Below, one piece after another: positions 11,385 to 57,279 of a stretch of 64,000 nucleotides of DNA (within the stretch, counting starts at the first letter, position 1; each line of letters opens with the position of its first letter). The notes beneath the pieces were generated by a model that worked only from the letters and a program-made list of their open reading frames with translations, did no database searches and had not been told where the DNA came from. The stretch is from Nostoc sp. (GTDB taxonomy: Bacteria > Cyanobacteriota > Cyanobacteriia > Cyanobacteriales > Nostocaceae), in assembly GCF_036917635.1 (NCBI RefSeq), contig NZ_JBALCW010000082.1, forward strand, positions 16,486-80,485. Reading direction: 5' to 3'. The position numbers were made by a program, and so were the translations under genes.

Positions 11385-11603
11385 ATGATTCGCACACTCG
11401 TTGAATCTGCTTTTCAAACTGGATATCTTAGTGTTGAATCTGAGGGATTACTCCATCAAGTGCTAGTAACTAAATGCTGGAAGGAAGAGGATTTATCGGA
11501 TCTCGCAGCCCTATACGATGCAGTTCGGGCAGGTAAAATAAAACGAGAAGCATCCTCGTCGAACGTGCTTATGGAATTTCCGCTACCATATAAATCTTGC
11601 TGA
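11385..11603 (+). CDS. small hypothetical protein
   Basis: 72-aa ORF with plausible composition. Confidence 0.4.
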   Translation: MIRTLVESAFQTGYLSVESEGLLHQVLVTKCWKEEDLSDLAALYDAVRAGKIKREASSSNVLMEFPLPYKSC

Positions 11604-12218: not shown

Positions 12219-12530
12219 ATGCTACACCGCAAGATTTATCAACTCTGTTGCGATGGGCGCGAGGTATGTGTTTTCTTGCGGGACCAGCAACGCTGGATTG
12301 AACGCGCCCGCATCATCGACATAGAGGGAGATTTAGTGACTCTACGCTATGAAACAGAAGAAGAGGACGAAGTTTGTTCTTGGGAAGAAATGGTTCGCCT
12401 CGAGAGCATTGGTGCTGTAACGCAAAAACTGGCTTCAGTACCACGCGGTAATGTGGAACCTTTGATGACTGAAGACTGTCCCGAGGCCGAACGCATCCAC
12501 AACCGTTACACTGACTCGAATCCAGAATAA
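12219..12530 (+). CDS. hypothetical protein
   Basis: 103-aa acidic ORF with no competing ORF. Confidence 0.5.
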   Translation: MLHRKIYQLCCDGREVCVFLRDQQRWIERARIIDIEGDLVTLRYETEEEDEVCSWEEMVRLESIGAVTQKLASVPRGNVEPLMTEDCPEAERIHNRYTDSNPE

Positions 12531-12579
12531 TCAGTCATTAGTTAATAGTCATTAGTCATTCGTCATTCGTCATTAATTA
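12531..12579. repeat. STRR heptamer tract (TCATTAG/TCATTCG)
   Basis: Tandem units read directly. Confidence 0.85.
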
Positions 12580-12607
12580 AAAATGACAAAAGACACCGGA
12601 TTAATGA

Positions 12608-14275
12608 CTATTGGCTCTCATTGAAACCTTCAAAAGCAGGACAGTAACCTTCTAGAGTTACCTTAAAGTTATACAACGGGGAAGCTGGATTCCAACATCG
12701 CTGCCCCCTTTGGTGTCGGCAAGTACCGCAACAGTCTACATCTGTCCATGTATAGCGATCGCTACTTTGGTTGAGCAATTCTCGTTGAGACAATCCCCTC
12801 AATACTAGTTCTTCGCCTTGCCAACGAGCTTCGATTAAACCAGTATCGGCAAATTGCCGCCAACGCGGATCGGTAGTAATCACATCGGCTAGGGTGATTG
12901 TGATTACTGTTCCCAACTCTGTCAGTTCGCCTTCGTAATTAGTTTCTGGTGCTGCGGGTTGTAAAAATGTATCGCCGATAGGCAATTCTACTAAAGTATC
13001 AGCCGCCGGGGAATGGACATGGTAGCGGTTTTGTAACTCCTCTAAGCTAGTCAGGTCTGCCAAGTAGGCAGGAGAACCGTGAATAAAAATGACGTGCTGG
13101 GGTCGCAAATTATGAATTAGCTGCGTAGTACCAGGCCCATCACTATGTTGAGCCAAGAGATAGCTTTCAACAGTGGTGGGTGCTAAATATTCTTTGTTAA
13201 CTTTTATATCAATTTTTTCTGGTAACAAGATCAGCCAAGGTCCTGTGTCTAGTTGGCAGTGCTTACCCAAATCATCTGTAGAGTCGGTGAGGACTATACA
13301 AGGTGACTTACCCACAGTAGGACGATGTTCTGGTTGTAAACGACGCACGCGGGGACGCACCCGTTCATCCCAAAATAAGGGTTGATGGCGGGCGAAGTTC
13401 TGTACAGATGGGGGAAGGTGGGGTAACAGTTCTAAGTAGGCATCACACCCAGTAGCGACAGCACCATCTACCCAGATATCTAAATCTCGTCCGGTGAAGT
13501 GGTGATGAGAGCGTAAGAGCATTAATAATTCTTGACCCAATCCTAAAGCAGGGGTGGGAAGAATTACAGAACAATTCTCAGCGATGGCGCGATTAATTCT
13601 TTCTGCTAGTTGATTTTCTTGGTTGCGGCGGTGAGGATGACGGGATGTGCCATAACTGCCTTCAATAATTAGCACATCCAAGTCTAATCCTCGCAGTTCC
13701 TCTAAACGCAAACCTTCTACCAACCGGGAGTTTGACAGGAAAAAATCTCCTGTATACAGTAGCTTGTAAGTACGTTGCTTCGTGGTGTAGGTAAGGAGAA
13801 TTGCCACAGCCCCCGGTAGATGCCCGGAGGGAAATAATTCTGCCACCAAACCATCTTGGAATTCCACAGGCGATCGCAACGGCAAGGCATGACAAAATTC
13901 GGAAATTTTCTCTGGATCTTGGTCTAGCCAATTCAACGGCAGTAACTTGCTGGTTACTTCGCTACCATAAATAGGTAACTTGGGAAAAGCTTTATGCAGT
14001 GCCAGTAAGCCTCTGGCGTGATCTGGGTGGGCGTGACTAATTAAAACCAAATCTGCTGGGGAGGACGAATCAATTCCCCGTACCGACTTACTAAGCCCCT
14101 TCGCCAGCGATGAAATATCTTCCAAACCACAATCTAACAGGATGCGGTGTGGTCCCATCTTCACCAATAAACACACACCCTCATCGTAATGCTGCACACT
14201 ATAGGGCAAACATTCTAATTCACTACCCCCGAACGCAGCATCTACGCCAGAGGATGCCGATAGATTATCCCTCAT
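12608..14275 (-). CDS. MBL-fold metallo-hydrolase (beta-CASP-like) with a Cys-rich C-terminal domain
   Basis: HxHxDH motif (SHAHPDHARG). 555 aa. C-terminal CCGTCRHQRGQRCWNP...CPAFE. Confidence 0.8.
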   Translation of the reverse strand: MRDNLSASSGVDAAFGGSELECLPYSVQHYDEGVCLLVKMGPHRILLDCGLEDISSLAKGLSKSVRGIDSSSPADLVLISHAHPDHARGLLALHKAFPKLPIYGSEVTSKLLPLNWLDQDPEKISEFCHALPLRSPVEFQDGLVAELFPSGHLPGAVAILLTYTTKQRTYKLLYTGDFFLSNSRLVEGLRLEELRGLDLDVLIIEGSYGTSRHPHRRNQENQLAERINRAIAENCSVILPTPALGLGQELLMLLRSHHHFTGRDLDIWVDGAVATGCDAYLELLPHLPPSVQNFARHQPLFWDERVRPRVRRLQPEHRPTVGKSPCIVLTDSTDDLGKHCQLDTGPWLILLPEKIDIKVNKEYLAPTTVESYLLAQHSDGPGTTQLIHNLRPQHVIFIHGSPAYLADLTSLEELQNRYHVHSPAADTLVELPIGDTFLQPAAPETNYEGELTELGTVITITLADVITTDPRWRQFADTGLIEARWQGEELVLRGLSQRELLNQSSDRYTWTDVDCCGTCRHQRGQRCWNPASPLYNFKVTLEGYCPAFEGFNESQ

Positions 14276-14577
14276 GCTCTCCTCCTCCCCTCAAACCTCA
14301 TCATCATGGACATATCCCAAAAGCCAAAAATTACACAAATTTTGGTTTTGTGACTTAGGGGTAAGTTTTATCGTGCGCCCCTACACCCTGAGAATACAGA
14401 TTTTTGATTGGGGAGGACGCCTCCACCGAACCCGCACTGGTTCAGAAAGGTGGACTAACCAGAAGCCATCAAATTACTAGCTCAAGGATGCCTCTTGTTT
14501 ATTTTCCCTTTGCAAGTTCTGAACGCTCTTAACCAACTCACTCTAAGGCAAGTCGCCCAAGCCTTTACAGATTTATC

Positions 14578-14700
14578 TCAATGTGCAGAGCCATTGCCGT
14601 GATAGTTATCTGAATCATAAAATCCATTTTTCGTGCCAAAAAATAAGCACGAAAGCGTAAAGATAACTGTCAATCCAGCTAGAATCAGCTTTACATCCAT
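14578..14700 (-). CDS. possible 40-aa single-pass membrane peptide
   Basis: MDVKLILAGLTVIFTLSCLFFGTKNGFYDSDNYHGNGSAH. A purine-rich AAGGGG lies about 9 nt upstream. Below the size cut-off of the ORF track. Confidence 0.3.
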   Translation of the reverse strand: MDVKLILAGLTVIFTLSCLFFGTKNGFYDSDNYHGNGSAH

Positions 14701-14957
14701 TTTTTTGCTGCCCCTTAGTTTTAAAGACTTTCCTATATTAATTTAGTGCTTCCGCAATTAAACGTAATCACTAGAAAATCTTTACTATGGTTATGTGGAT
14801 TGGGCAATAGGTAAATTTACCGCAATCAGTCAGATTGTAGAACCTTTCGGTTCACCTGTCCATTGATCTAGATTTGACCTTGAAAGGGCTGGTCTTACTT
14901 AATATTAAAAACAGGAGCAATTATTTCCCAACCCCTAAATAAAAATACCTGTGTTGT

Positions 14958-15755: not shown

Positions 15756-15971
15756 ATGAGTTATTTCCGTCGTCGCCTTTCTCCGATCAAGCCAGGAGAG
15801 CCAATCGATTATAAAGATGTTGATTTACTGCGTAAGTTTGTCACCGAACGGGGTAAAATATTGCCACGTCGGATTACTGGGCTTACATCTCAGCAACAGC
15901 GAGAGTTGACATTAGCAATTAAACGTTCGCGCATTGTGGCTTTGTTGCCATTTATCAATGCGGAAGGCTAA
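15756..15971 (+). CDS. rpsR: 30S ribosomal protein S18
   Basis: 71 aa (...[26 protein letters not shown]...). Starts 2 nt after rpmG. Confidence 0.95.
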
Positions 15972-15974
15972 AAC

Positions 15975-16041
15975 AATTTTGGATTTGGAATTTTAGATTT
16001 TGGATTATTAAAGAGAATGTCCAAAATCTGAAATCTGAATC
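15975..16041. repeat. STRR heptamer tract (TTTTGGA/TTTTAGA) with an inverted arm
   Basis: Read directly. Confidence 0.8.
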
Positions 16042-21725: not shown

Positions 21726-21868
21726 TTGCTCAAGCGTCAAATAATTTTGGATTTTGGATTTTAGATTTGATGTTGATCCAGTTAACCTCTCTTGATAAAT
21801 TATGAGCTACATCAATTAAACCGCGTCTATCTTGAAACCTGTAGTTCTTTGGTGATGAAAAGGATTTG

Positions 21869-25618: not shown

Positions 25619-27145
25619 ATGAAATTAGCTTACTGGATGTATGCAGGACCTGCCCACATCGGCACTCTGCGAATCGCTAGCTCTTTTAAAAATGTGCATG
25701 CGATCATGCACGCCCCCATTGGCGATGACTACTTTAACGTTATGCGCTCCATGTTATCGCGCGAGAGGAATTTCACTCCGGTAACAACCAGTGTCGTCGA
25801 TCGCAACGTTTTGGCACGCGGTTCTCAAGAAAAGGTGGTAGATAACATCGTCCGCAAGGATGCCGAGGAACACCCAGATTTGATTGTGTTAACTCCCACC
25901 TGCACTTCCAGCATTTTGCAAGAGGATTTGCACAACTTTGTCGAACGGGCGCAGTTGGAAGCGAAAGGAGACGTAATGCTGGCGGATGTGAACCACTACC
26001 GCTACAACGAACTGCAAGCCGCCGATCGCACTTTGGATCAAATCGTCCAATACTACATTGAAAAAGCCCGGAAGCGGGGCGAATTGGCACAGGGCAAAAC
26101 AGCAAAGCCCTCAGTTAACATTATCGGTACTACTACCCTTGGTTTCCACAATAATCACGACTGCACCGAACTCAAACGGCTGATGGCTGACTTGGGAATT
26201 GAGGTAAATACCTTAATTCCCGAAGGTGCTTCGGTGAATGACTTGAAGAAGATGTCCCAAGCTTGGTTTAACCTCATACCTTACCGTGAACTCGGTTTAA
26301 CCACCGCTCGTTACCTGGAAGAACAATTTGGCACACCCTATATAGACATTACTCCGATGGGTGTAGTGGAAACTGCCCGTTGTATTCGCAAGATTCAGCA
26401 GGTAATTAACGCTCAAGGTGCAGAAGTTGACTACGAAAACTTCATCAATGAGCAAACCTTGCATGTTTCTCAGGCTGCTTGGTTCTCCCGTTCCATTGAC
26501 TGTCAAAACTTGACTGGCAAAAAAGCTGTAGTATTTGGTGACAATACCCACGCCGCAGCCATTACCAAGATTCTGGCGCGAGAAATGGGGATTCATGTTG
26601 TTTGGGCTGGAACCTACTGCAAATATGATGCAGACTGGTTCCGCGAACAGGTTAGCGAGTATTGCGATGAAGTGCTAATTTCCGAAGATCATGGTGAAAT
26701 TGGGGATGCGATCGCTCGTGTCGAACCCTCTGCCATTTTCGGCACCCAAATGGAACGCCACGTTGGTAAACGTTTGGATATTCCCTGCGGCGTAATTGCT
26801 GCACCAATCCACGTTCAAAACTTCCCCATTGGTTACAAACCATTTATGGGTTACGAAGGGACAAATCAGATTACAGATTTGATCTACAATTCCTTCACTT
26901 TGGGAATGGAAGATCACCTATTAGAAATCTTCGGTGGTCATGATACTAAAGAAGTTATTACTAGGGGAATTTCTGCTGATTCTGATTTGAATTGGACAAA
27001 AGATGGTCAAGCAGAATTGAATAAGATTCCGGGATTTGTTCGCGGGAAAGTGAAGCGTAATACTGAAAAATTTGCCCGCGATCGCGGTTTCAAGGAAATC
27101 AACGCTGAGGTACTATACGCCGCGAAGGAATCTGTCGGGGCGTAG
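25619..27145 (+). CDS. chlB: light-independent protochlorophyllide reductase subunit B
   Basis: [39 protein letters not shown]... (508 aa). Start set at the ATG at 25619 behind AAAGGGAGA. Confidence 0.95.
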
Positions 27146-27172
27146 CTTAACGGGTTAGCGATTTTTAATAAT

Positions 27173-27200
27173 AAAGGGCATATCTTAAGGAATGCCTTTT
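27173..27200. terminator. hairpin between chlB and the convergent vapC
   Basis: AAAGGGCAT..ATGCCTTTT, flanked by A- and T-runs. It could serve both strands. Confidence 0.5.
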
Positions 27201-27208
27201 ATTATTAC

Positions 27209-27634
27209 TTATTCTGACTTCAGCAGACGAATAAAGCCAGCTTGTTCAAAGTGGTGATCTGTGGTTAATGACTCTTTAATACCAAGCTGTTGCATGACTA
27301 TAAAAGAAGTGCTATCCACCAAAGACCAAGCTTTATCTTCTCTAGTTTTGAGTAGCTCCCAAGCTGCTGAATCTATTGCTGGTTCAATATAAATCAAGTT
27401 GATATAAGGAGCGGTTCTGACAGCTTCTACATATTTAAATAACTGCGAACGAGGTACACGTAAAGGGCTATTCAGTAAAGCCACCAGTTCAATCACAACA
27501 TAATTAGTTGTTACCATTGCTTGATTTTGCTGACGTTTATGTTGAAACCACTGCTTTGCTTGTTTATGGTAAGACTCAGTTGCAATAAATAAATTAGCCC
27601 ACCCGGATGTATCTATAAAGACTTTATTCGCCAA
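27209..27634 (-). CDS. vapC: PIN-domain toxin (VapC family)
   Basis: 141 aa with conserved acidic positions (FIDTSGW, LVDSTSF, TTDHHF). Overlaps the upstream small ORF by 11 nt. Confidence 0.8.
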   Translation of the reverse strand: MANKVFIDTSGWANLFIATESYHKQAKQWFQHKRQQNQAMVTTNYVVIELVALLNSPLRVPRSQLFKYVEAVRTAPYINLIYIEPAIDSAAWELLKTREDKAWSLVDSTSFIVMQQLGIKESLTTDHHFEQAGFIRLLKSE

Positions 27635-27881
27635 TTTTTAACTCCTGCTGCAAACTTTGCTGGAGATATTTATCGTGGTTTTCTCCTACATCAGAATTAT
27701 CAAATTTCAATGTACCTAGTAAAGGTAAAATTGGATCGAATTCGGAGATATTTTCCTGTTTAGCTGATTGAGATAAGGATTGTAGAATTAAATCTTCTAA
27801 AGATAGATTCAGTTTTTGCGCCTGAGCAGTTAATTTACTTTCTAAGTCATCTGACAACTGTATTGTTAATATTTTAGCCAT
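27624..27881 (-). CDS. putative antitoxin of the PIN toxin
   Basis: 85-aa acidic ORF, translationally coupled to vapC. Confidence 0.6.
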   Translation of the reverse strand: MAKILTIQLSDDLESKLTAQAQKLNLSLEDLILQSLSQSAKQENISEFDPILPLLGTLKFDNSDVGENHDKYLQQSLQQELKIGE

Positions 27882-28044
27882 TTGATTTACCAGTTACGGA
27901 TGTTTCTAATCCTATTATATGCCCGCATAGCAAGTAGAAAAGAGTAGTTGTTTAGCATGGAAACGATCGCAACTATTTGTAAAATGTGAATTAGAAGTTT
28001 TACGTGCAGTAATAATTTCAGTTAAAAGAATATAAATCTATTGA

Positions 28045-28197
28045 AGCACCAAGAAATTTGCCTGCGATCGCGGTTTCAAAGAAATCAACGCTGAGGTTTT
28101 GTACGCCGCGAAGGAAGCTGTCGGGGCGTAGATTGTGGAGTTAGCGATTATTTAAATTAAAGGGTGTCCTGTATGGATACCCTTTTTGCTTACTTAT
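28045..28197 (+). repeat. displaced copy B of the chlB 3' end (last ~28 codons, stop at 28129-28131) with its own terminator hairpin
   Basis: Hand alignment to 27059-27203: about 6 mismatches in 78 coding nt. Reads ..[27 protein letters not shown]. An in-frame TGA lies just upstream at 28042-28044. Hairpin AAAGGGTGTCC..GGATACCCTTT plus a T-run at 28169-28197. Confidence 0.85.
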
Positions 28198-28330
28198 CCT
28201 TGATTTACTCATGATGTACAAAAAACTGTAGTACATACAGTTTTTTTTTCATGAATTTCATATTTTTACAAAGATTTTATGTTTTTGACTGCTAAATTAT
28301 TACAGAAGAATTAATGTAAATTATATATAA

Positions 28331-28720
28331 ATGAAGATTGAAGAATTTAACTATGAAAAATCAGCTTTAATTGCCGAACTCCTCCAACTTAGCATTAAAC
28401 ACAGTCCTGAGAAAATTGTGCGGATTGCCAAGCAAACTGATGGTAAAATTCTATTTTTAGAAGAGGGAAATGCTGAAGCAGGACTCCAACACATATTGCA
28501 AGAACATTCTTTAGAGTTTGCTGATCAGGGAATCGAGCCAAGCCAGATACCAGATGCAATTATCACCGCAGTAACCCAAGGTAAAATAATTGGTTATCAA
28601 GGAAGAAAAAAAACTCGCACTATTTATGAAGTTAATTTTAATGGCAAAATCCAATACATCTGTGTGACTGTAAGCGATAATGGATATATAGTTGGTGCTA
28701 ATCCCAGAACTTCCTCATAA
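28331..28720 (+). CDS. hypothetical protein, possible small nuclease-type toxin
   Basis: 129 aa. Helical N-terminus, then GLQHILQEH, then beta-rich RTIYEVNFNGKIQYICVTVSDNGYIVGANP. First gene of a tight 3-gene operon. The functional guess is inference only. Confidence 0.5.
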   Translation: MKIEEFNYEKSALIAELLQLSIKHSPEKIVRIAKQTDGKILFLEEGNAEAGLQHILQEHSLEFADQGIEPSQIPDAIITAVTQGKIIGYQGRKKTRTIYEVNFNGKIQYICVTVSDNGYIVGANPRTSS

Positions 28721-28735
28721 TTCGGTGAAGTAACT

Positions 28736-29092
28736 ATGGCAGAAAAAATCAAACTTATGGCTGATTATGGATGCTACCCGCTATGGTGGGCTAGTTCCGA
28801 TAAAGCTGGAGATATTGATCCTCTTATAATGCCATTAAGTCAAGAAACTATTAGCCGTTTAGAAAAATGGGCAGAAGTTTATGATGCAAAGTTAAACTGG
28901 AAAGATCCTAATTCTTCAGGTTTTCACAGTTTAGAGGCTAAAACGGCTTTTGAAGCAGAAGGAATTAGCTTGTGGAAGCGACTGCAAAAAGAACTTGCAC
29001 CCAACTATGAAGTTTTATATTTCAGTGAAATATTACGTAAAGTTGTAACTGATACTAATGAATTAGACTCTTTGCGTACTATCTATGCTTAA
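28736..29092 (+). CDS. hypothetical protein, possible cognate immunity/antitoxin
   Basis: 118-aa Trp-rich acidic ORF that starts 15 nt after the previous stop. Confidence 0.5.
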   Translation: MAEKIKLMADYGCYPLWWASSDKAGDIDPLIMPLSQETISRLEKWAEVYDAKLNWKDPNSSGFHSLEAKTAFEAEGISLWKRLQKELAPNYEVLYFSEILRKVVTDTNELDSLRTIYA

Positions 29093-29118
29093 CTGATAGT
29101 CCACGAAAAAATTAAGCA

Positions 29119-29370
29119 ATGACAACAGCTAGTTTATTTCAGTGGGTAGAACTGAAGCAAGATGTTCCTAATAGCCCTGTAACAGCTGGCAATAGGGGGG
29201 TTGTATTAGATCATCTACGTCCTACTAAAACTCAGCAAGAGCCAGGATATATTTTAGAAGTCTTTAAAGACGGTGAAACTCTAGATGTAGTTAGTGTGCC
29301 TATTTCCTGGGTCAACCTTCTACCTGAAACCTGGGGAAGTATTGAACATGATACAAGACAGACAGTTTAA
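29119..29370 (+). CDS. DUF4926-like small protein
   Basis: 83 aa. The pattern ...VELKQDVP...G.RGVVLDH.....EPGYILEVF.DGETLDVVSV recalls DUF4926. Its stop lies 3 nt before chlB-tail copy C. Confidence 0.55.
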   Translation: MTTASLFQWVELKQDVPNSPVTAGNRGVVLDHLRPTKTQQEPGYILEVFKDGETLDVVSVPISWVNLLPETWGSIEHDTRQTV

Positions 29371-29373
29371 AAC

Positions 29374-29486
29374 ATCGCGGTTTCAAAGAAATCAACGCTG
29401 AGGTATTATACCCTGCAAAGGAGGCTGTCGGGGCTTAATTTAGCGGGTTAACAATATCAGCAGTCAGCCTTGGAAGTTGACTGCTG
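29374..29486 (+). repeat. displaced copy C of the chlB 3' end (stop at 29436-29438) with its own hairpin
   Basis: About 9 mismatches in 65 nt against copy A. Reads [19 protein letters not shown]. Homology starts inside the HIP1 position (ATCGCGG). Hairpin CAGCAGTCA..TGACTGCTG at 29458-29486. Confidence 0.8.
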
Positions 29487-29513: not shown

Positions 29514-29879
29514 CTACCTAGTCTTTTTGTTTAGTGTTTTGATTAGTTTAGTAATCAACTTTAATTGGATTTGGGAAAAGTAACTCATTGAAATAATGAC
29601 AGCTACTGCAATTCCTCCATCCATCAATATGGGAATTGAAACTGCTGGTGGGACTGGTATTGGAGGATCACTTAGATTGGAAGAAACAAGCATCTCCTGC
29701 TGTTTTTCTACCTTCTCCACTATCTTTTGAGCGTAAAAGTCGTATTCCCATTTTTGGAGAAAAGAGGGTGAAGGCTGGAAAAAACCAATTCCATTCTTTT
29801 TATTCATAGGTTCAAAACCCACTAAATTTATAGTTTTCAGACTAAAGCCTGTTGCTAGTGGGTCTATCAAGTGTGTCAA
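29514..29879 (-). CDS. hypothetical small protein with a C-terminal TM segment
   Basis: 121 aa from a TTG start (or 97 aa from MNKKNG at 29807). TM segment GGIAVAVIISMSYF. Starts 15 nt downstream of the preceding ORF. Confidence 0.35.
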   Translation of the reverse strand: MTHLIDPLATGFSLKTINLVGFEPMNKKNGIGFFQPSPSFLQKWEYDFYAQKIVEKVEKQQEMLVSSNLSDPPIPVPPAVSIPILMDGGIAVAVIISMSYFSQIQLKLITKLIKTLNKKTR

Positions 29880-29894
29880 AGATGTGAAGAATTG

Positions 29895-30719
29895 TTAAGC
29901 AGAATAAGCACCACCCTTGCCAGCAGAGACCTTTGTACCTTTTTTCCAAGCATAAGAGTAGCTTTTTTGCCAGGTAGCTGATTCTCTCTTACGAATTGAA
30001 GTAGCTATATGGTTCTGAAAGTCGTAAAATGCCGTCATAAAGGTATCAAAATTTTCTTTAATCCGTCGATTTGACCTTGCCTCTATCCGACAAAAAGTAA
30101 TAAAAAGAAAGTACCAACGTCTTTCTTTAACAAAATGTTTCTTTTCTAATGATTTATAGTTCTTAACTTCTATTGAATTACGTTGCTCCTCAAGAACTAA
30201 CTTTGTCGTTCCATTTTTATTCTCTACTAGATGAGATTTTTTGCCTGAGTTAATCATTTCCTTGATTTTTGGAAGTGATTTTTCATAATGATTTTGTAGA
30301 CAAGGTAAAAACTCATCTTCTGCTTCTTCTTCCAAAAATGCTAATAACATTTCCAAAGGAGATTGGAAAGGGTACTTAAAAGGTAAGTTTGCTTTTAGAC
30401 ATTTTTCTCTAAATTGCGGTTCAGCAACCTGTACCAATTCCCATAAACCCATCAGATAGTTCATCCATCGTCGGTAGTGTTCACAAGTATGAGCGTTAAT
30501 TTGCTTATTATCAGCAATAACGTCAAATGGATTATGTCGGATAGAATGACTTTCTTTCCAAAATACTGATAGTAATCCATAATTAAGCCTTAACCTCAAC
30601 CACTCGATTCGTTGCTCGTCTGTTTTTGCTTGAGATAGTAGTCTATCGGAAGGTAGTTGGGCTAGATAGTCGCTAATCAAGTGATATTTCTGTTTTTTTG
30701 CGTCCGTAGGTTCATTCAT
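29895..30719 (-). CDS. hypothetical protein (Lys/Glu-rich, no family recognised)
   Basis: 274-aa ORF in an AT-rich block, divergent from the primase-helicase gene. Confidence 0.55.
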   Translation of the reverse strand: MNEPTDAKKQKYHLISDYLAQLPSDRLLSQAKTDEQRIEWLRLRLNYGLLSVFWKESHSIRHNPFDVIADNKQINAHTCEHYRRWMNYLMGLWELVQVAEPQFREKCLKANLPFKYPFQSPLEMLLAFLEEEAEDEFLPCLQNHYEKSLPKIKEMINSGKKSHLVENKNGTTKLVLEEQRNSIEVKNYKSLEKKHFVKERRWYFLFITFCRIEARSNRRIKENFDTFMTAFYDFQNHIATSIRKRESATWQKSYSYAWKKGTKVSAGKGGAYSA

Positions 30720-31084
30720 AGTTGTATACTAAGTACTTAGAAATTTGAGGCACTTATCAATACTGATTTTAGCTAAGACACAATTCTCCAACTAGTCTAG
30801 CTATTATGTTCTGTTAGCGATCGCTGCTGCAACCCCTCAAGCGATCGCACTCCCTAACGCAGAGATTTACTGATAAATAAAAATTAAAATAGAACAAATA
30901 TCACAATACAAAATTATTACTCCGGGGATTTAATAGGCAGAATAACCTACTAAAGCCTTAACCGATGTATCTCCCATAACGAAGTAAAAAAAGCATCATA
31001 AAAGCCTCGCAATATCTCTTATAGAAAAAAAGCAGATGCGTGTTAGTGTTTTAATCTCATCGTCTTTCCTTCGGGTCTTTCCCT

Positions 31085-34000
31085 ATGCATCTGCACTATT
31101 TACACCCCCAACACCTTGAAGAATTAGTCAAGAGTAGTGGTATAGACTTACACTTAGTGCAACTCAATTTTAGGTCACTCCAAGGCGTAACTGCTTATGA
31201 GTACCTATTGATTTCTGAGCTACTCCCTCGCACCAATACCGGAATGGTGAAAGCTGCATGGTTGCAGCGTTATGCTCATATTACTGAAGGTGGTTGGTGG
31301 TGTTCCGGGCTAGACCCTTTGAATAATTGGCAAATGATGGAATGGGGATGCTTTAAGCCAAACCAACCGCGACAGAATCATAATGGTAAGTCCATCAAAT
31401 ACGAGCATCCCCCCAGCACACCAACGCGGGTGTTTTGTTTGCGGGTAACGCTGCAAGTGTGGCAGCAAGTCGCTGGACGTTACAATCTGGTCATGCCTGA
31501 CAATATCACCATTACTGCTGATGGTGAAGCTGAAGGCTTTTGGCAATGGGTGATGCAACAGAATATTTCCCTGATTCTCTGCGAAGGTGTGAAGAAAGCA
31601 GCAACACTTTTGACGCAAGGATATGCAGCTATTGCCATTCCCGGAATTACCAGTGGTTATCGGGTTGTTAAAGATGAATTTGGTAAAGTTACTCGTCGTC
31701 AGCTAATTCCTGATTTAGCAGCATTTGCAATTACAAAGCGTAGCTTTTATATTTGCTTTGATTTTGAAACTCAACCTAAAACAATTGCTGCTGTAAATAA
31801 TGCTATTTCTCAACTTGGTTGTTTATTCCAGCAAGAAAAATGCACTGTTAAAATTATCGAACTTCCAGGAATAGAAAAAGGAGTTGATGAGTTTATCGTT
31901 GCCAAAGGTGCAACTAGTTTCGATAAAGTTTATCGTCAAAGTGTTGATTTAGAAATTTATCTTGCTCAAACCAAACCCCACACTGAGTTAACTATTCCTG
32001 CTGCACTCACCTTGAACCGCCCTTATATAGGTGAAATACCTTTCCCCACTTCTGGATTAGTAGGAGTCAAATCAGCAAAAGGAACAGGTAAAACTACAGC
32101 CCTGCAAGCCGTTGTTCAGCAAGCAAAAATTAGAAATCAACCCGTTTTGTTAATTACTCACAGAATCCTACTAGGAAGATTTTTGTGTGAAAAAATTGGT
32201 ATTCAATGGGGAACACATAAAGAAGATGCGGATAAAAGGATTGATAAAACACTTACCCCCGCTCCTCCCATTCTCCGCTCCCTCTCTCCTCAGCAGTCTC
32301 TTGGATTGTGTGTTGATTCTATTTGGAAACTTAACCCAGAAAATTGGCGAGGAGCAATAGTAATTCTAGATGAAGTAGAGCAATCTTTGTGGCATCTATT
32401 AAACAGTAATACTTGTAAACACAAGCGTGTAAAAATATTAAAATTATTCCAGCAACTTATTTCCATCGTTTTAACAACTGGGGGTTTAGTAATTGCCCAA
32501 GATGCTGATTTATCAGACGTATCACTTGAATATTTACAAGGATTAGCAGGAATTAAATTAACACCTTGGGTAGTTCTCAACCAGTGGAAACCTCAGCATG
32601 GTTGGGACGTAACTTTTTATGATTCACCGAATCCAACACCGCTAATTCACCAACTAGAATTAGATTTACTTGCTGGACGTAAATGTTATGTTACTACCGA
32701 TAGTCGCGCTGGGCGTTACAGTTGTGAAACAATTGAACGTTATCTCAAAGAACGCTTACAAAAATTACGAAGGCAATTTCCCAAAACTTTGGTAGTTAGT
32801 AGTCATACTACAAACACACCTGGACACGAAGCCGTTGATTTTATTACAGCTATCAATCAAAAAATCTCTGAATATGATGGCGTTTTTGTTACCCCTAGCC
32901 TTGGTACAGGAATTAGTATTGATGTGCAACATTTCGACCGGGTTTATGGTATTTTTCAAGGGGTAATTCCTGATTCGGAAGCAAGACAAGCATTAGCGAG
33001 AGTGCGGGATGATGTGCCGCGTGTTGTCTGGTGCGCGAAACGAGGTATTGGTTTAATTGGTAGTGGTAGTACAAATTATCGCTTGCTATCTGACTGGTAT
33101 CAAGAAAATCAAAAAGAAAATTTAGCTTTGCTTAGTCCACTGCATAAAATAGATGTGGATTTACCTTTAGTTCATGATCCGATTCATTTGCGAACTTGGG
33201 CTAAGTTATCTGCACGGGTAAATGCTTCTATCCGCCTCTACCGTCAATCGATGCAAGATGGTTTAATTGCTGATGGGCATCAAATTCAGATGCGGAGTAA
33301 TGCTGTTCACAATAATATTATTCGGGATTTACGCCTTGCATTTTTGGCAACTGACGCTGATGATTTAGCTACCCGCAGAAGATTAGTTTTGGAAATTGTC
33401 AAAGTTCAAAAAGATTGGGCGCAAAGCCGTCAAAAAGCTAAAGAAATTAAACGCAAAATTAAGGATATTAAGCAGCAAAATCAACTATCGGTAGCAACTG
33501 CTGTAGCTAATGCTAAAAATATCGATTATATAGAATATGAGCAGCTATTAGGGAAGCATTCTCTGACTGATGGAGAACGCAACCAAATTAATAAATATAT
33601 TCTCAGACAAAGGTATGGTGTAGAAGTTACTCCTTGGCTGAAATTGCAAGATGACCAAGGATATTATCGTCAATTGTTAATTCATTATTATCTAACTCAC
33701 GAAAGCGAATATTTTCACGTCAGAGATCAGCAAGAATGGCATCAACAATTGTCTTGGGGTGAAGGGAAAGTTTTTCTCCCAGATTTAAAAACTTACACGC
33801 TCAAAGTTGAGGCTATGAGAGCTTTGGGAATGCTTCAGTTTCTCGAAGCAGAAAGAGAATTTACTGAGAGTCATCCAGATTTGATGTTGCTGAAAAATAT
33901 TGTTTTTCAGCATAGTAAGCATATTAAAAGAGCGCTTAGTATTAACTTAATCGGGGAGAAAGAGCAGGTTTCAGCAATCAAAATACTCAGCCGATTGTTC

Positions 34001-34231
34001 AATTTGTTAGGCTTGAAACTAAAGCGGGTAAATGAGGTTTATCAAATCGACCTAGAAACACTTTATGATGGCAGGGAGAGAATATTTACAGTTTGGCATC
34101 AACGGGATGAGTTGATGTTGGCTCATGTTAAGAGTGTTGGCTATGAATTGCCTGATTATTCTTCAGACTGGAAGTTTGAAATTATCCAACCCAAGGCTTA
34201 TACCACAGTAGCTAATATCCTTGACAGCTAA
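31085..34231 (+). CDS. plasmid-type replication protein: Toprim/primase-like (DUF3854) N-terminal domain plus P-loop helicase domain (CyRepA-like)
   Basis: 1048 aa. Toprim-like LILCEGVKKAATLL...GITSG...FDFE. Walker A GVKSAKGTGKT. Walker B IVILDEVEQ. The architecture recalls cyanobacterial plasmid Rep proteins (CyRepA1 family). Confidence 0.7.
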   Translation: MHLHYLHPQHLEELVKSSGIDLHLVQLNFRSLQGVTAYEYLLISELLPRTNTGMVKAAWLQRYAHITEGGWWCSGLDPLNNWQMMEWGCFKPNQPRQNHNGKSIKYEHPPSTPTRVFCLRVTLQVWQQVAGRYNLVMPDNITITADGEAEGFWQWVMQQNISLILCEGVKKAATLLTQGYAAIAIPGITSGYRVVKDEFGKVTRRQLIPDLAAFAITKRSFYICFDFETQPKTIAAVNNAISQLGCLFQQEKCTVKIIELPGIEKGVDEFIVAKGATSFDKVYRQSVDLEIYLAQTKPHTELTIPAALTLNRPYIGEIPFPTSGLVGVKSAKGTGKTTALQAVVQQAKIRNQPVLLITHRILLGRFLCEKIGIQWGTHKEDADKRIDKTLTPAPPILRSLSPQQSLGLCVDSIWKLNPENWRGAIVILDEVEQSLWHLLNSNTCKHKRVKILKLFQQLISIVLTTGGLVIAQDADLSDVSLEYLQGLAGIKLTPWVVLNQWKPQHGWDVTFYDSPNPTPLIHQLELDLLAGRKCYVTTDSRAGRYSCETIERYLKERLQKLRRQFPKTLVVSSHTTNTPGHEAVDFITAINQKISEYDGVFVTPSLGTGISIDVQHFDRVYGIFQGVIPDSEARQALARVRDDVPRVVWCAKRGIGLIGSGSTNYRLLSDWYQENQKENLALLSPLHKIDVDLPLVHDPIHLRTWAKLSARVNASIRLYRQSMQDGLIADGHQIQMRSNAVHNNIIRDLRLAFLATDADDLATRRRLVLEIVKVQKDWAQSRQKAKEIKRKIKDIKQQNQLSVATAVANAKNIDYIEYEQLLGKHSLTDGERNQINKYILRQRYGVEVTPWLKLQDDQGYYRQLLIHYYLTHESEYFHVRDQQEWHQQLSWGEGKVFLPDLKTYTLKVEAMRALGMLQFLEAEREFTESHPDLMLLKNIVFQHSKHIKRALSINLIGEKEQVSAIKILSRLFNLLGLKLKRVNEVYQIDLETLYDGRERIFTVWHQRDELMLAHVKSVGYELPDYSSDWKFEIIQPKAYTTVANILDS

Positions 34232-56511: not shown

Positions 56512-57279
56512 ATGACGGCTACTTTACCAGTTAGTGTCGAATCAGAAATTTTCTATCCCAGTGCTGATGGTCAACCAGTGGCAGAAACCTATGACCACCT
56601 TTATGCCTTGCTAACTACCTTGGAAGTCCTAAAACAGTATCTGGCAAATCGTCAGGCAACAGTATTGGGAAATCAATTTCTTTACTATGCACAAGGCTTT
56701 CCCAAGTTGCGGGTAGCCCCAGATGTGATGGTGATTTTTGATGTTGCACCTGGTGGTCGGGACAACTATAAAATCTGGGAAGAGGGTCAAGTACCTATAG
56801 TTATTTTTGAAATGACATCCTTTGCTACTAAGGGACAAGATGAAATCTTCAAAAAGACTCTCTATGAGCAGCTAGGTGTCAAGGAATACTGGCTATTTGA
56901 CCCTAAAGGTGAGTGGGTGGAACAACAGTTACGTGGCTATCGCTTGCGGGGAGAAATCTACGAACCCATACAGGATGGACGCAGTGAACCGCTACAACTG
57001 CGCTTGGTGATTGAGGGAAGGTTAATTGGGTTTTACCCTGAGGATACAGGGGAAAAATTACTCATCCCTGATGAACTGGTACAGGTTTTACAGCAGGAAG
57101 TTTTAGCAAGACAACAAGCAGAAGTACTTGTAGAACAAGAACGCCAAAGAGCAGAACAAGAACGCCAAAGAGCAGAACAGGCAGAATTGCAGATAGAACA
57201 GTTAAAGGCAAGGTTGCGTTCGCCCTTGGCGTTGGCGCAGCCATCGCTCAATGTAGACCCTGATACTATTCAGCTATAA
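56512..57279 (+). CDS. Uma2 family endonuclease with a C-terminal coiled-coil repeat extension
   Basis: Uma2 core (APDVMVIFD...IVIFEMTS...EYWLFDP), followed by EQERQRAEQERQRAEQ encoded by a 21-bp tandem duplication. Confidence 0.8.
   Translation: MTATLPVSVESEIFYPSADGQPVAETYDHLYALLTTLEVLKQYLANRQATVLGNQFLYYAQGFPKLRVAPDVMVIFDVAPGGRDNYKIWEEGQVPIVIFEMTSFATKGQDEIFKKTLYEQLGVKEYWLFDPKGEWVEQQLRGYRLRGEIYEPIQDGRSEPLQLRLVIEGRLIGFYPEDTGEKLLIPDELVQVLQQEVLARQQAEVLVEQERQRAEQERQRAEQAELQIEQLKARLRSPLALAQPSLNVDPDTIQL

Follow-up and report, generated by a model that had tools for sequence, protein, structure and literature searches.

A 64,000-nt stretch of DNA from Nostoc sp. (contig NZ_JBALCW010000082.1; hereafter the window, within which all coordinates are counted unless another locus is named) carries three direct copies of the 3' end of chlB, the gene for subunit B of the light-independent protochlorophyllide reductase. 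Judged by comparison with related genomes, the interval between chlB and a downstream gene of the CyRepA1 family appears to be a fast-evolving island of toxin-antitoxin, toxin-immunity and defence genes, with a tandem array of cassettes as its chlB-proximal part. The cassettes follow one plan, namely a chlB tail running from HIP1 (an abundant cyanobacterial palindrome, the function of which is, to our knowledge, still unestablished) to the stop codon, a trailer of about 20 nt, a hairpin of its own, the cargo and a conserved right end. The cassette next to chlB would complete the gene, leaving the tails further down redundant and decaying. The likeliest account, which we hold to be probable, is that the array is anchored by homology, its cassettes being moved by general (RecA-type) homologous recombination through short or circular intermediates.

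Loci compared

A scan for chlB loci, taking one genome per species, yielded 80 loci with 10-kb flanks (labelled L001 onwards), in which ChlB is 92-99% identical. The 46 closest loci (the window, L001-L044 and L062; nearly all Nostoc) form the Nostoc-clade set, and 35 loci from other genera (Anabaena, Dolichospermum, Nodularia, Cylindrospermum, Calothrix and others) the comparison set. Hairpin types (H0, H1 and so on) are clusters of the 75 nt 3' of each tail stop codon, cargo gene families are labelled c0, c1, c4, c7/c8, c9, c15, c22 and c35, and positions around the exchange site are numbered from the G of GGTTTC. The exact ChlB protein of the window was not on record, and two further ChlB relatives yielded more arrays but no within-species pair.

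Three chlB ends in the window

Automatic repeat finding returned an 82-nt family of three copies (27081-27162; 28067-28148, 88%; 29374-29455, 84%) and a longer, 133-nt pair formed by copies A and B (27068-27200 and 28054-28186, 81%), which runs on through hairpin A. A 26-nt core, GGTTTCAARGAAATCAACGCTGAGGT, recurs at 27086, 28072 and 29379, with 0 matches expected (100 shuffles). An earlier note on this DNA, made from its letters, had described three direct tail copies, each with a trailer and a distinct hairpin, at positions that we confirm; its hand counts of the differences (6 of 78 positions between A and B, 9 of 65 between A and C) are exact, and copies B and C do, as it said, reach a stop codon, which lies in the same register as that of the native tail. 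Behind every copy come about 20 nt of trailer, related among the copies, and a stable hairpin, the sequence of which differs from copy to copy (Table 1). Since a simple terminator scan called none of hairpins A, B and C, they were folded directly; no known RNA family gave a credible match between 26900 and 31100. The A-B interval, said earlier to hold only a vapBC module, does contain the VapBC cassette, to which a fossil right end of about 70 nt (27986-28063) has to be added, and the B-C interval contains three open reading frames (ORFs) on the + strand.

Hairpin C shares its 9-bp stem, CAGCAGTCA/TGACTGCTG, with the hairpin that lies 3' of native chlB in L021 and L028 (about 11560-11590 of those loci, type H12). 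The 11-nt loops of the two, GCCTTGGAAGT and ACTTCCAAGGC, are exact reverse complements, the loop being flipped between inverted repeats.

Table 1. Features of the chlB-CyRepA1 interval, in window coordinates
Feature	Position	Strand	Evidence and remarks
chlB, light-independent protochlorophyllide reductase subunit B, 508 aa	25619..27145	+	ORF; source annotations agree; last ~22 codons lie within copy A
Copy A: in-frame chlB tail, stop 27143-27145, ~20-nt trailer	27059..27165	+	Repeat finding, alignment
Exchange block of copy A, 34 nt, GCGATCGCGGTTTCAAGGAAATCAACGCTGAGGT	27078-27111	+	HIP1 at 27078-27085
Hairpin A, type H1	27166..27207		Fold -18.5 kcal/mol, z -3.8; between convergent chlB and vapC
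VapC-like PIN-domain toxin, cassette 1	27209..27634	-	Pfam PIN E 4e-9; NCBIfam VapC subfamily TIGR00028 weak, below cut-off (E 1.6e-4, 21.9 bits vs 73.6)
85-aa antitoxin-like ORF overlapping vapC start, cassette 1	27624..27881	-	Weak Arc-like repressor match; always beside PIN gene
Conserved right end, cassette 1	27986..28063	+	Alignments; pattern match 28027-28059
Copy B: displaced chlB tail and trailer	28064..28151	+	Exchange block 28064-28097, pseudo-stop 28129-28131; chlB frame closed upstream
Hairpin B, type H3, then U-run	28159..28185	+	Fold -23.9 kcal/mol, z -5.6
129-aa stand-alone CdiA-CT-like toxin domain, family c1	28331..28720	+	PDB 7m5f chain C 'Toxin CdiA' E 2.2e-33; weak Pfam PBECR1 nuclease match
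118-aa CdiI-like immunity protein, family c0	28736..29092	+	PDB 7m5f chain A 'CdiI' E 3.5e-22
83-aa DUF4926-like ORF, family c4, end of cassette 2	29119..29370	+	Pfam DUF4926 E 2.9e-4, below cut-off; beside DUF6883 in other arrays
Copy C: displaced chlB tail, left-truncated inside HIP1 (ATCGC), and trailer	29374..29455	+	Pseudo-stop 29436-29438; Ala-to-Pro change
Hairpin C, type H7	29457..29486		Fold -21.5 kcal/mol, z -4.3; linked to terminal unit
Terminal unit: 121-aa (c15) and 274-aa (c22) ORFs, function unassigned	29514..30719	-	Directly 3' of native chlB end in L021, L028
1048-aa CyRepA1-family plasmid-replication-type protein; distal boundary of variable region	31085..34231	+	Pfam DUF3854 E 4e-49; NCBIfam NF042913 392 bits vs cut-off 200; DUF3854/Toprim-like domain and P-loop helicase region

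Array variation among relatives

Two to four tail copies, spaced from 66 nt to about 2 kb, are present in 34 of the 46 Nostoc-clade loci, as against a single copy in all 35 loci of other genera. The Nostoc-clade arrays hold at least eight cargo types in differing orders, and empty, one-, two-, three- and four-copy states all occur. Among the cargo between tails are VapBC, the CdiA-CT/CdiI-like pair with or without DUF4926, DUF6883 with DUF4926, a membrane protein of about 100 aa, and a TPR protein with an antitoxin; 3' of the last tail are found YefM/YoeB, DUF2281 with MazF/PemK, GmrSD, AbiTii, Schlafen/AlbA_2, WYL-WCX, HEPN with DUF5343, a UDG-like gene and others. Several paralogous toxin/immunity pairs share one array in L016, L020 and L035. 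That the cassettes carry no recombinase of their own, as the earlier note supposed, holds for the cargo and for the genes beyond the last tail in all 46 arrays, and neither an integrase nor a resolvase nor a transposase gene is found in the window.

Units of tail, hairpin and cargo that are native, that is in frame with chlB, in some genomes occupy second or third place in others, and can be arranged in nested series (T, displaced tail). One runs from chlB-[c15 c22] (L021, L028) through chlB-[c1 c0]-T-[c15 c22] (L023) to chlB-[VapBC]-T-[c1 c0 c4]-T-[c15 c22] (the window); another from chlB-[GmrSD unit] (L029) to one cassette before that unit in L001 and two in L041; a third from chlB-[H5 unit] (L004) to VapBC before the H5 unit in L030 and L062. 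Native counterparts of both displaced copies of the window exist among the relatives, for the unit of copy B, including hairpin B, in L027 (91%) and L006 (89%) and for copy C in L028 (86%) and L021 (80%), copy C being in addition 99% identical to the displaced copy 2 of L023. Presence/absence polymorphism is thus abundant, and the alignment of relatives bears out the proposal of the earlier note that the cassettes are discrete and that each brings a replacement chlB end. As to its picture of serial insertion, in which older ends are pushed downstream, the order of insertion is not polarisable, since an exchange between tails can remove a cassette as readily as add one, and nothing shows the integration to be site-specific.

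Within this diversity the trailer and hairpin type track the right-hand and not the left-hand cargo. The H1 hairpin, for example, is always found 5' of VapBC (c7/c8; 15 units), whether the left neighbour is chlB, a c9 cassette or a DUF6883 cassette.

In L035 (11468-11600) two chlB tails stand in direct tandem, 66 nt apart (..GGGGCTTAGGTTCGC joined to GGTTTCAAAGAAGTT..), as an empty cassette, the junction of which may owe its origin to microhomology of the trailer (GCGGGTT) with the start of the tail (GCGGTTT). In L069 (Aphanizomenon flos-aquae, 13265-14713) and L078 (Cronbergia, 12405-14340) a direct repeat of 280-400 nt, TAATCATTGAGTCCGTTTTAACGGACTTCG..., 92-95% identical, separates CdiI-like genes 3' of chlB, and cassette arrays in genera without chlB tail copies may rest on another repeat. 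Exact look-ups of the VapC and CdiI-like proteins of the window returned only short Logan contigs breaking at chlB tails (L083 and L084, SRR28386280; 1.8 and 1.3 kb), which carry these exact proteins. Tails are a site where short-read assemblies break, and arrays may for this reason be under-reported in draft genomes.

A linkage switch within 34 nucleotides

One question then is where, within the tail, the association with one neighbour gives way to that with the other. In displaced copies linkage to the left-hand cargo extends no further than -10/-9 (p=0.000 for the sites -12 to -10, per-site permutation). Inside the tail the per-site association test alone was underpowered, and the linkage was resolved by a pooled distance test: for the segment +26..+56 the distance is 0.137 within a right-hand class and 0.174 between classes (p<0.001; displaced copies only, p=0.005), the same segment being unrelated to the left class (p=0.79). 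With left linkage ending at -10/-9 and right linkage starting from +26, the switch falls within a block of 34 nt, GCGATCGCGGTTTCAARGAAATCAAYGCTGAGGT.

In the Nostoc clade this block is nearly invariant, synonymous sites included, and in other genera it is variable. It is without polymorphism that could place the crossover point, and the sites just to its left show mixed states, the 4 nt left of HIP1 in displaced copies being AATT, GCCT, GTCT or ATCT, with the native-like GCCC in 3 copies; such mixed states fit variable conversion end-points. A perfect 12-nt palindrome, CCGCGATCGCGG, centred on HIP1, opens the block in native chlB. Between the type of the first cassette and the chlB sequence immediately upstream of the block no association was seen, in a test that is weak since the cassette classes are old; the lack of upstream linkage fits an intermediate that carries tail homology only.

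A common right end and its origin

Nearly all displaced copies are preceded, regardless of cargo, by one and the same sequence, ..GTGAATTAGAAGTTTTACGTGCTATTCAGCAATGATTTCACGTAACAGAATATAAATCTAGTGCAGCACCAAGAAATTTAATT / GCGATCGC GGTTTC.., with the right-end motif AGAATATAAATCTAGTGCAGCACC, at least 45 nt being conserved across at least five cargo types. The distal part of this right end is the 3' end of a CdiI-like (c0) gene, kept as a non-coding fossil in the VapBC cassette of the window (about 27986-28019), where it is followed by a spacer ending in ..AGAATATAAATCT at 28039 and then by the chlB-derived leader ATTGAAGCACCAAGAAATTTGCCT. The spacer is homologous to the sequence downstream of c0 in L047, which is without a tail copy; the homology stops at ..AAATCT, and chlB-derived sequence comes next. 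Read in the chlB frame, the displaced tail has a stop codon ahead of it, and TGC stands in place of CGC just before GATCGC. A junction common to nearly all displaced copies points to a single ancestral duplication, and against the earlier proposal that the tails stem from different lineages and not from local duplication.

In Anabaena, Dolichospermum, Calothrix and Aulosira a CdiA-CT/CdiI-like pair (c1-c0), with trailer and H0 hairpin, lies directly 3' of a chlB without duplication, which suggests that this arrangement is ancestral. Two Nostoc-clade loci, L012 and L023, have a complete CdiI-like gene followed by the fossil 3' end of another and appear to be cases of cargo replacement caught in the act. 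The start of copy C inside HIP1, correctly noticed before, looks like a secondary truncation and not an original boundary, since HIP1 is complete and the conserved right end present in its 99%-identical counterpart in L023, and since in L033 the 83-aa gene is likewise followed by a right end, a longer one than in the window. A metagenome scan with a 31-nt right-end pattern gave 2 matches, both ordinary chlB arrays, without a free or circular form or any other gene context, so that the right end is seen only in chlB arrays; collections of plasmids (PLSDB) and phages gave no copy of the cassettes.

The state of the displaced tails is that of sequences released from constraint. Whatever cassette follows, the native tail peptide is identical in 46 of 46 loci except for Ala/Ser at one residue (..AAKE[A/S]VGA), and about one third of the displaced tails still encode it, the others having missense changes, in-frame stops, frameshifts or truncations. 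Often the last tail of an array is cut at arbitrary points. Displaced tails would thus be former or potential gene ends, now apparently under no selection.

How the cassettes could move

In the history that we propose, the ancestral state would have been chlB-H0-[toxin, immunity], and a single duplication would have brought together the region 3' of the CdiA-CT/CdiI-like pair and a point in chlB some 20-30 nt upstream of HIP1. All later cassettes would descend from that duplication, their cargo having been replaced inside the frame. Crossing-over in the shared tail, mainly in the 34-nt block, could then add, remove and rearrange cassettes, both inside a Nostoc lineage and from one lineage to another. 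Where two tails recombine, by loop-out or unequal exchange, a cassette would be released or deleted; where any tail undergoes one Campbell-type crossover with a cassette circle, or with a short fragment from a relative, a cassette would be inserted. Such a crossover would leave the right end with the left cargo and the trailer and hairpin with the right cargo, matching the linkage observed.

General homologous recombination accounts for every feature seen, and yet several points tell against this reading. The shared stretch is short (34 nt without mismatch, about 65-130 nt at 85-95%), and the recombination itself is something that we infer; the genomes compared are all different species, with no recent event among them; and the recombinase search took in no more than the ORFs of the 46 arrays and the whole window. 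A near-invariant block, synonymous sites included, and a right end kept across cargo types would also suit an attachment site to which a protein binds, linkage that drops sharply to either side of one short block is the prediction of a site-specific crossover, and the clean replacement by very different cargo, such as VapBC on the opposite strand, is left unexplained. Because the homology is so short and the block so like an attachment site, we rate the reading by homology no higher than probable and grant a lesser but appreciable chance to a recombinase acting in trans. The cassettes would then be miniature integrase-less integrative elements (akin to cis-mobilisable elements, CIMEs, or microCIMEs, to cargo-only satellites or to Xer-dependent modules), with the HIP1-containing block as attachment (att) site and the right end as arm site. 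Beyond the features just named, this possibility, less likely but to be taken seriously, gains from the want of hitch-hiking of upstream chlB with cassette type, from the palindrome at the native chlB junction and from the variability in other genera of synonymous sites that are almost fixed in the Nostoc clade; decayed att-flanked elements without integrase are, moreover, common in other bacteria (PMC7563491), and serial integration pushing older elements down an island has been described for tycheposons (bioRxiv 10.1101/2020.12.28.424599). General recombination is nevertheless favoured because the mixed 4 nt left of HIP1 suggest variable end-points, because the right end, containing as it does the non-coding fossil of a gene 3' end, is explained by descent, and because neither a recombinase gene in the arrays nor a free, plasmid or phage copy was found; nor is there an integrase-bearing relative of the cassettes at chlB in the 80 genomes. 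By eye only, no dyad-symmetric core with a 6-8 bp spacer was seen besides HIP1. Where a 28-bp Xer dif-like site is concerned, with two inverted 11-bp arms about a 6-bp spacer, the one dyad symmetry seen by eye was the HIP1-centred palindrome. A dedicated cassette-exchange platform with integron-like logic at the chlB 3' end, where a trans-acting enzyme recognising the block would insert and excise recombinase-less cassettes, is to our mind unlikely.

The single origin of the junction could also mean that the array is a purely local product, made by tandem duplication of the chlB tail with its neighbour and then by divergence, vertical inheritance and deletion without any movement of cassettes; deletion between tails can indeed yield 'empty' states, and cassette identity roughly follows flank identity. 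We consider this very improbable, as VapBC, the first cassette in the window, L010, L017, L020, L030 and L062, takes second place behind c9 in L025 and L038, and the H13 unit stands first in L029, second in L001 and third in L041; genomes 95-96% identical in the CyRepA1 gene all have different arrays, the cargo types are mutually unrelated and on either strand, and a history of deletions only would need an ancestor with every cassette in every order. The slightest chance of all falls to the notion that the island is the remnant of a CyRepA1-type defence plasmid, which entered by a single crossover via a captured chlB fragment and left the tails behind in repeated integration and excision. A Rep gene of that family bounds the island in about 43 genomes, the cargo is typical of plasmid addiction and defence, and the G+C content of the island (33-39%) departs from that of chlB and the housekeeping flanks (42-49%); against this, all tails lie upstream of the Rep gene, with none beyond it as whole-plasmid Campbell integration would leave, the conservation of the Rep gene (85-96%) is that of a chromosomal gene passed on vertically, and PLSDB holds no similar plasmid. 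Other candidates were rejected: a diversity-generating retroelement, as the window has no reverse transcriptase and the repeat differences involve all bases and are not adenine-specific; an integron, for want of intI in the window or arrays and of attI, the trailer (GTTAGCG / GTTAACA) also misfitting GTTRRRY by eye, with no paired attC boxes round the hairpins and with a repeat that is coding sequence; and a tRNA-linked island, neither tRNA nor tmRNA being present in the window.

Cargo and surroundings

The CdiA-CT-like ORF of the window has its own ATG, 200 nt downstream of the chlB fragment, to which it is never fused. Stand-alone pairs of the same kind stand directly 3' of chlB also in L047, L054, L061, L064 and L076, in several Nostocales genera, and neither cdiB nor full-length cdiA is found near the pair, which may work as a toxin-antitoxin pair and not in contact-dependent inhibition (CDI). 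Two Nostoc loci, L024 and L053, have a 780-800-aa ORF (c35) about 1.1-3.7 kb 3' of chlB, the N-terminal region of which resembles, by eye only, a two-partner-secretion domain of the filamentous haemagglutinin/CdiA type.

The distal boundary is set by a plasmid-type Rep gene that is encoded here in the chromosome and belongs to a family described elsewhere (CyRepA1; PMC10079941). As a syntenic neighbour it recurs in about 43 Nostoc-clade loci, at 85-96% nucleotide identity and with its distance from the chlB stop varying among loci from 1.1 to 6.2 kb; in the window the conserved 270 nt upstream of it, a conceivable place for an origin, are 30815-31084. Elsewhere in the window are two genes for putative endonucleases of the Uma2 family (390-1040 and 56512-57279) and a 42-nt direct repeat (..AATTTTGGATTTGGAATTTTAGATTT, 81% identical), the copies of which lie 5.8 kb from each other in two intergenic regions (15959-16000 and 21727-21768). 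The search for other displaced gene 3' ends that the earlier note proposed brought none to light in the window and none evident in 1.6 Mb of related flanks, where the repeats are internal repeats of TPR-like genes, short dispersed repeats and paralogue duplications.

Implications

Selfish toxin-antitoxin and toxin-immunity modules can, it seems, colonise the flank of an indispensable and highly conserved gene: since the modules carry a spare gene end, every insertion, deletion or swap leaves chlB intact. A natural cassette array without a visible recombinase would offer a clean system in which to study the minimal portable homology and the effect of HIP1 on recombination. As the array differs among all Nostoc species compared, it may be a sensitive strain marker, and the chlB site may serve as a neutral landing pad for Nostoc engineering. 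The matter would be considerably more interesting if the HIP1-containing block were a true recombination site, for HIP1 would, if a trans-acting enzyme does work on the block, gain a demonstrated role in site-specific recombination.

Comparison with known systems

We found no description of the chlB array in the papers searched, and its features recur, in different combinations, in several known systems. With chromosomal integrons it has in common small promoterless or toxin-antitoxin-bearing cassettes in tandem, a repeat with hairpin-forming sequence and a conserved platform; it differs in having no intI or attI, in that the repeat is the tail of a coding gene instead of an attC with R''/L''-L'/R' boxes, and in hairpins that are terminator-like and tied to the following cargo. 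Tycheposons, the tRNA-linked islands of Prochlorococcus, have tRNA targets and tyrosine recombinases (bioRxiv 10.1101/2020.12.28.424599), neither of which the chlB array has. The two are alike as cyanobacterial islands with repeated insertion at one site, older elements pushed down and partial target copies scattered.

Closest in form is the tandem accretion seen with integrative and conjugative elements (ICEs), integrative and mobilisable elements (IMEs) and CIMEs in streptococci. ICESt1/ICESt3-type elements integrate in the 3' end of fda. Streptococcal ICEs and IMEs include ICESt1/ICESt3-type elements, one of them named ..._fda, alongside integrase-less CIMEs in tandem and CIMEs at tRNA-Lys of S. 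agalactiae (PMC7563491), so that a protein-coding target, regarded by the earlier note as a departure from the known pattern, has precedent in tandem accretion. There as here, successive elements lie between direct repeats from a gene 3' end, the target gene is made whole again by the incoming element, decayed members lack a recombinase and the order varies among strains. In the streptococcal case an integrase-bearing member of the family does the work and the elements measure from kilobases to tens of kilobases, whereas the chlB array has no integrase-bearing member in 80 genomes, its cassettes are of 0.07-2 kb and their right ends share one fossil junction.

Closest in logic are the orphan Rhs/CDI arrays. 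Poole et al. reportedly described, in 2011, orphan toxin/immunity modules downstream of cdi loci. In those systems the fragment that recurs comes from the toxin-delivery gene, and recombination alters which toxin is exported, whereas in the chlB array the fragment is the end of an unrelated housekeeping gene, with its stop codon kept and a hairpin behind it, and is never fused to a toxin. Orphan rhs modules have a displaced fragment of the upstream gene that supplies the homology for recombination (PMC3967940), and RecA-type recombination swaps the module joined to the main gene. The chlB array likewise has toxin/immunity pairs, true CdiA-CT/CdiI homologues among them, each placed after a displaced fragment of the upstream gene.

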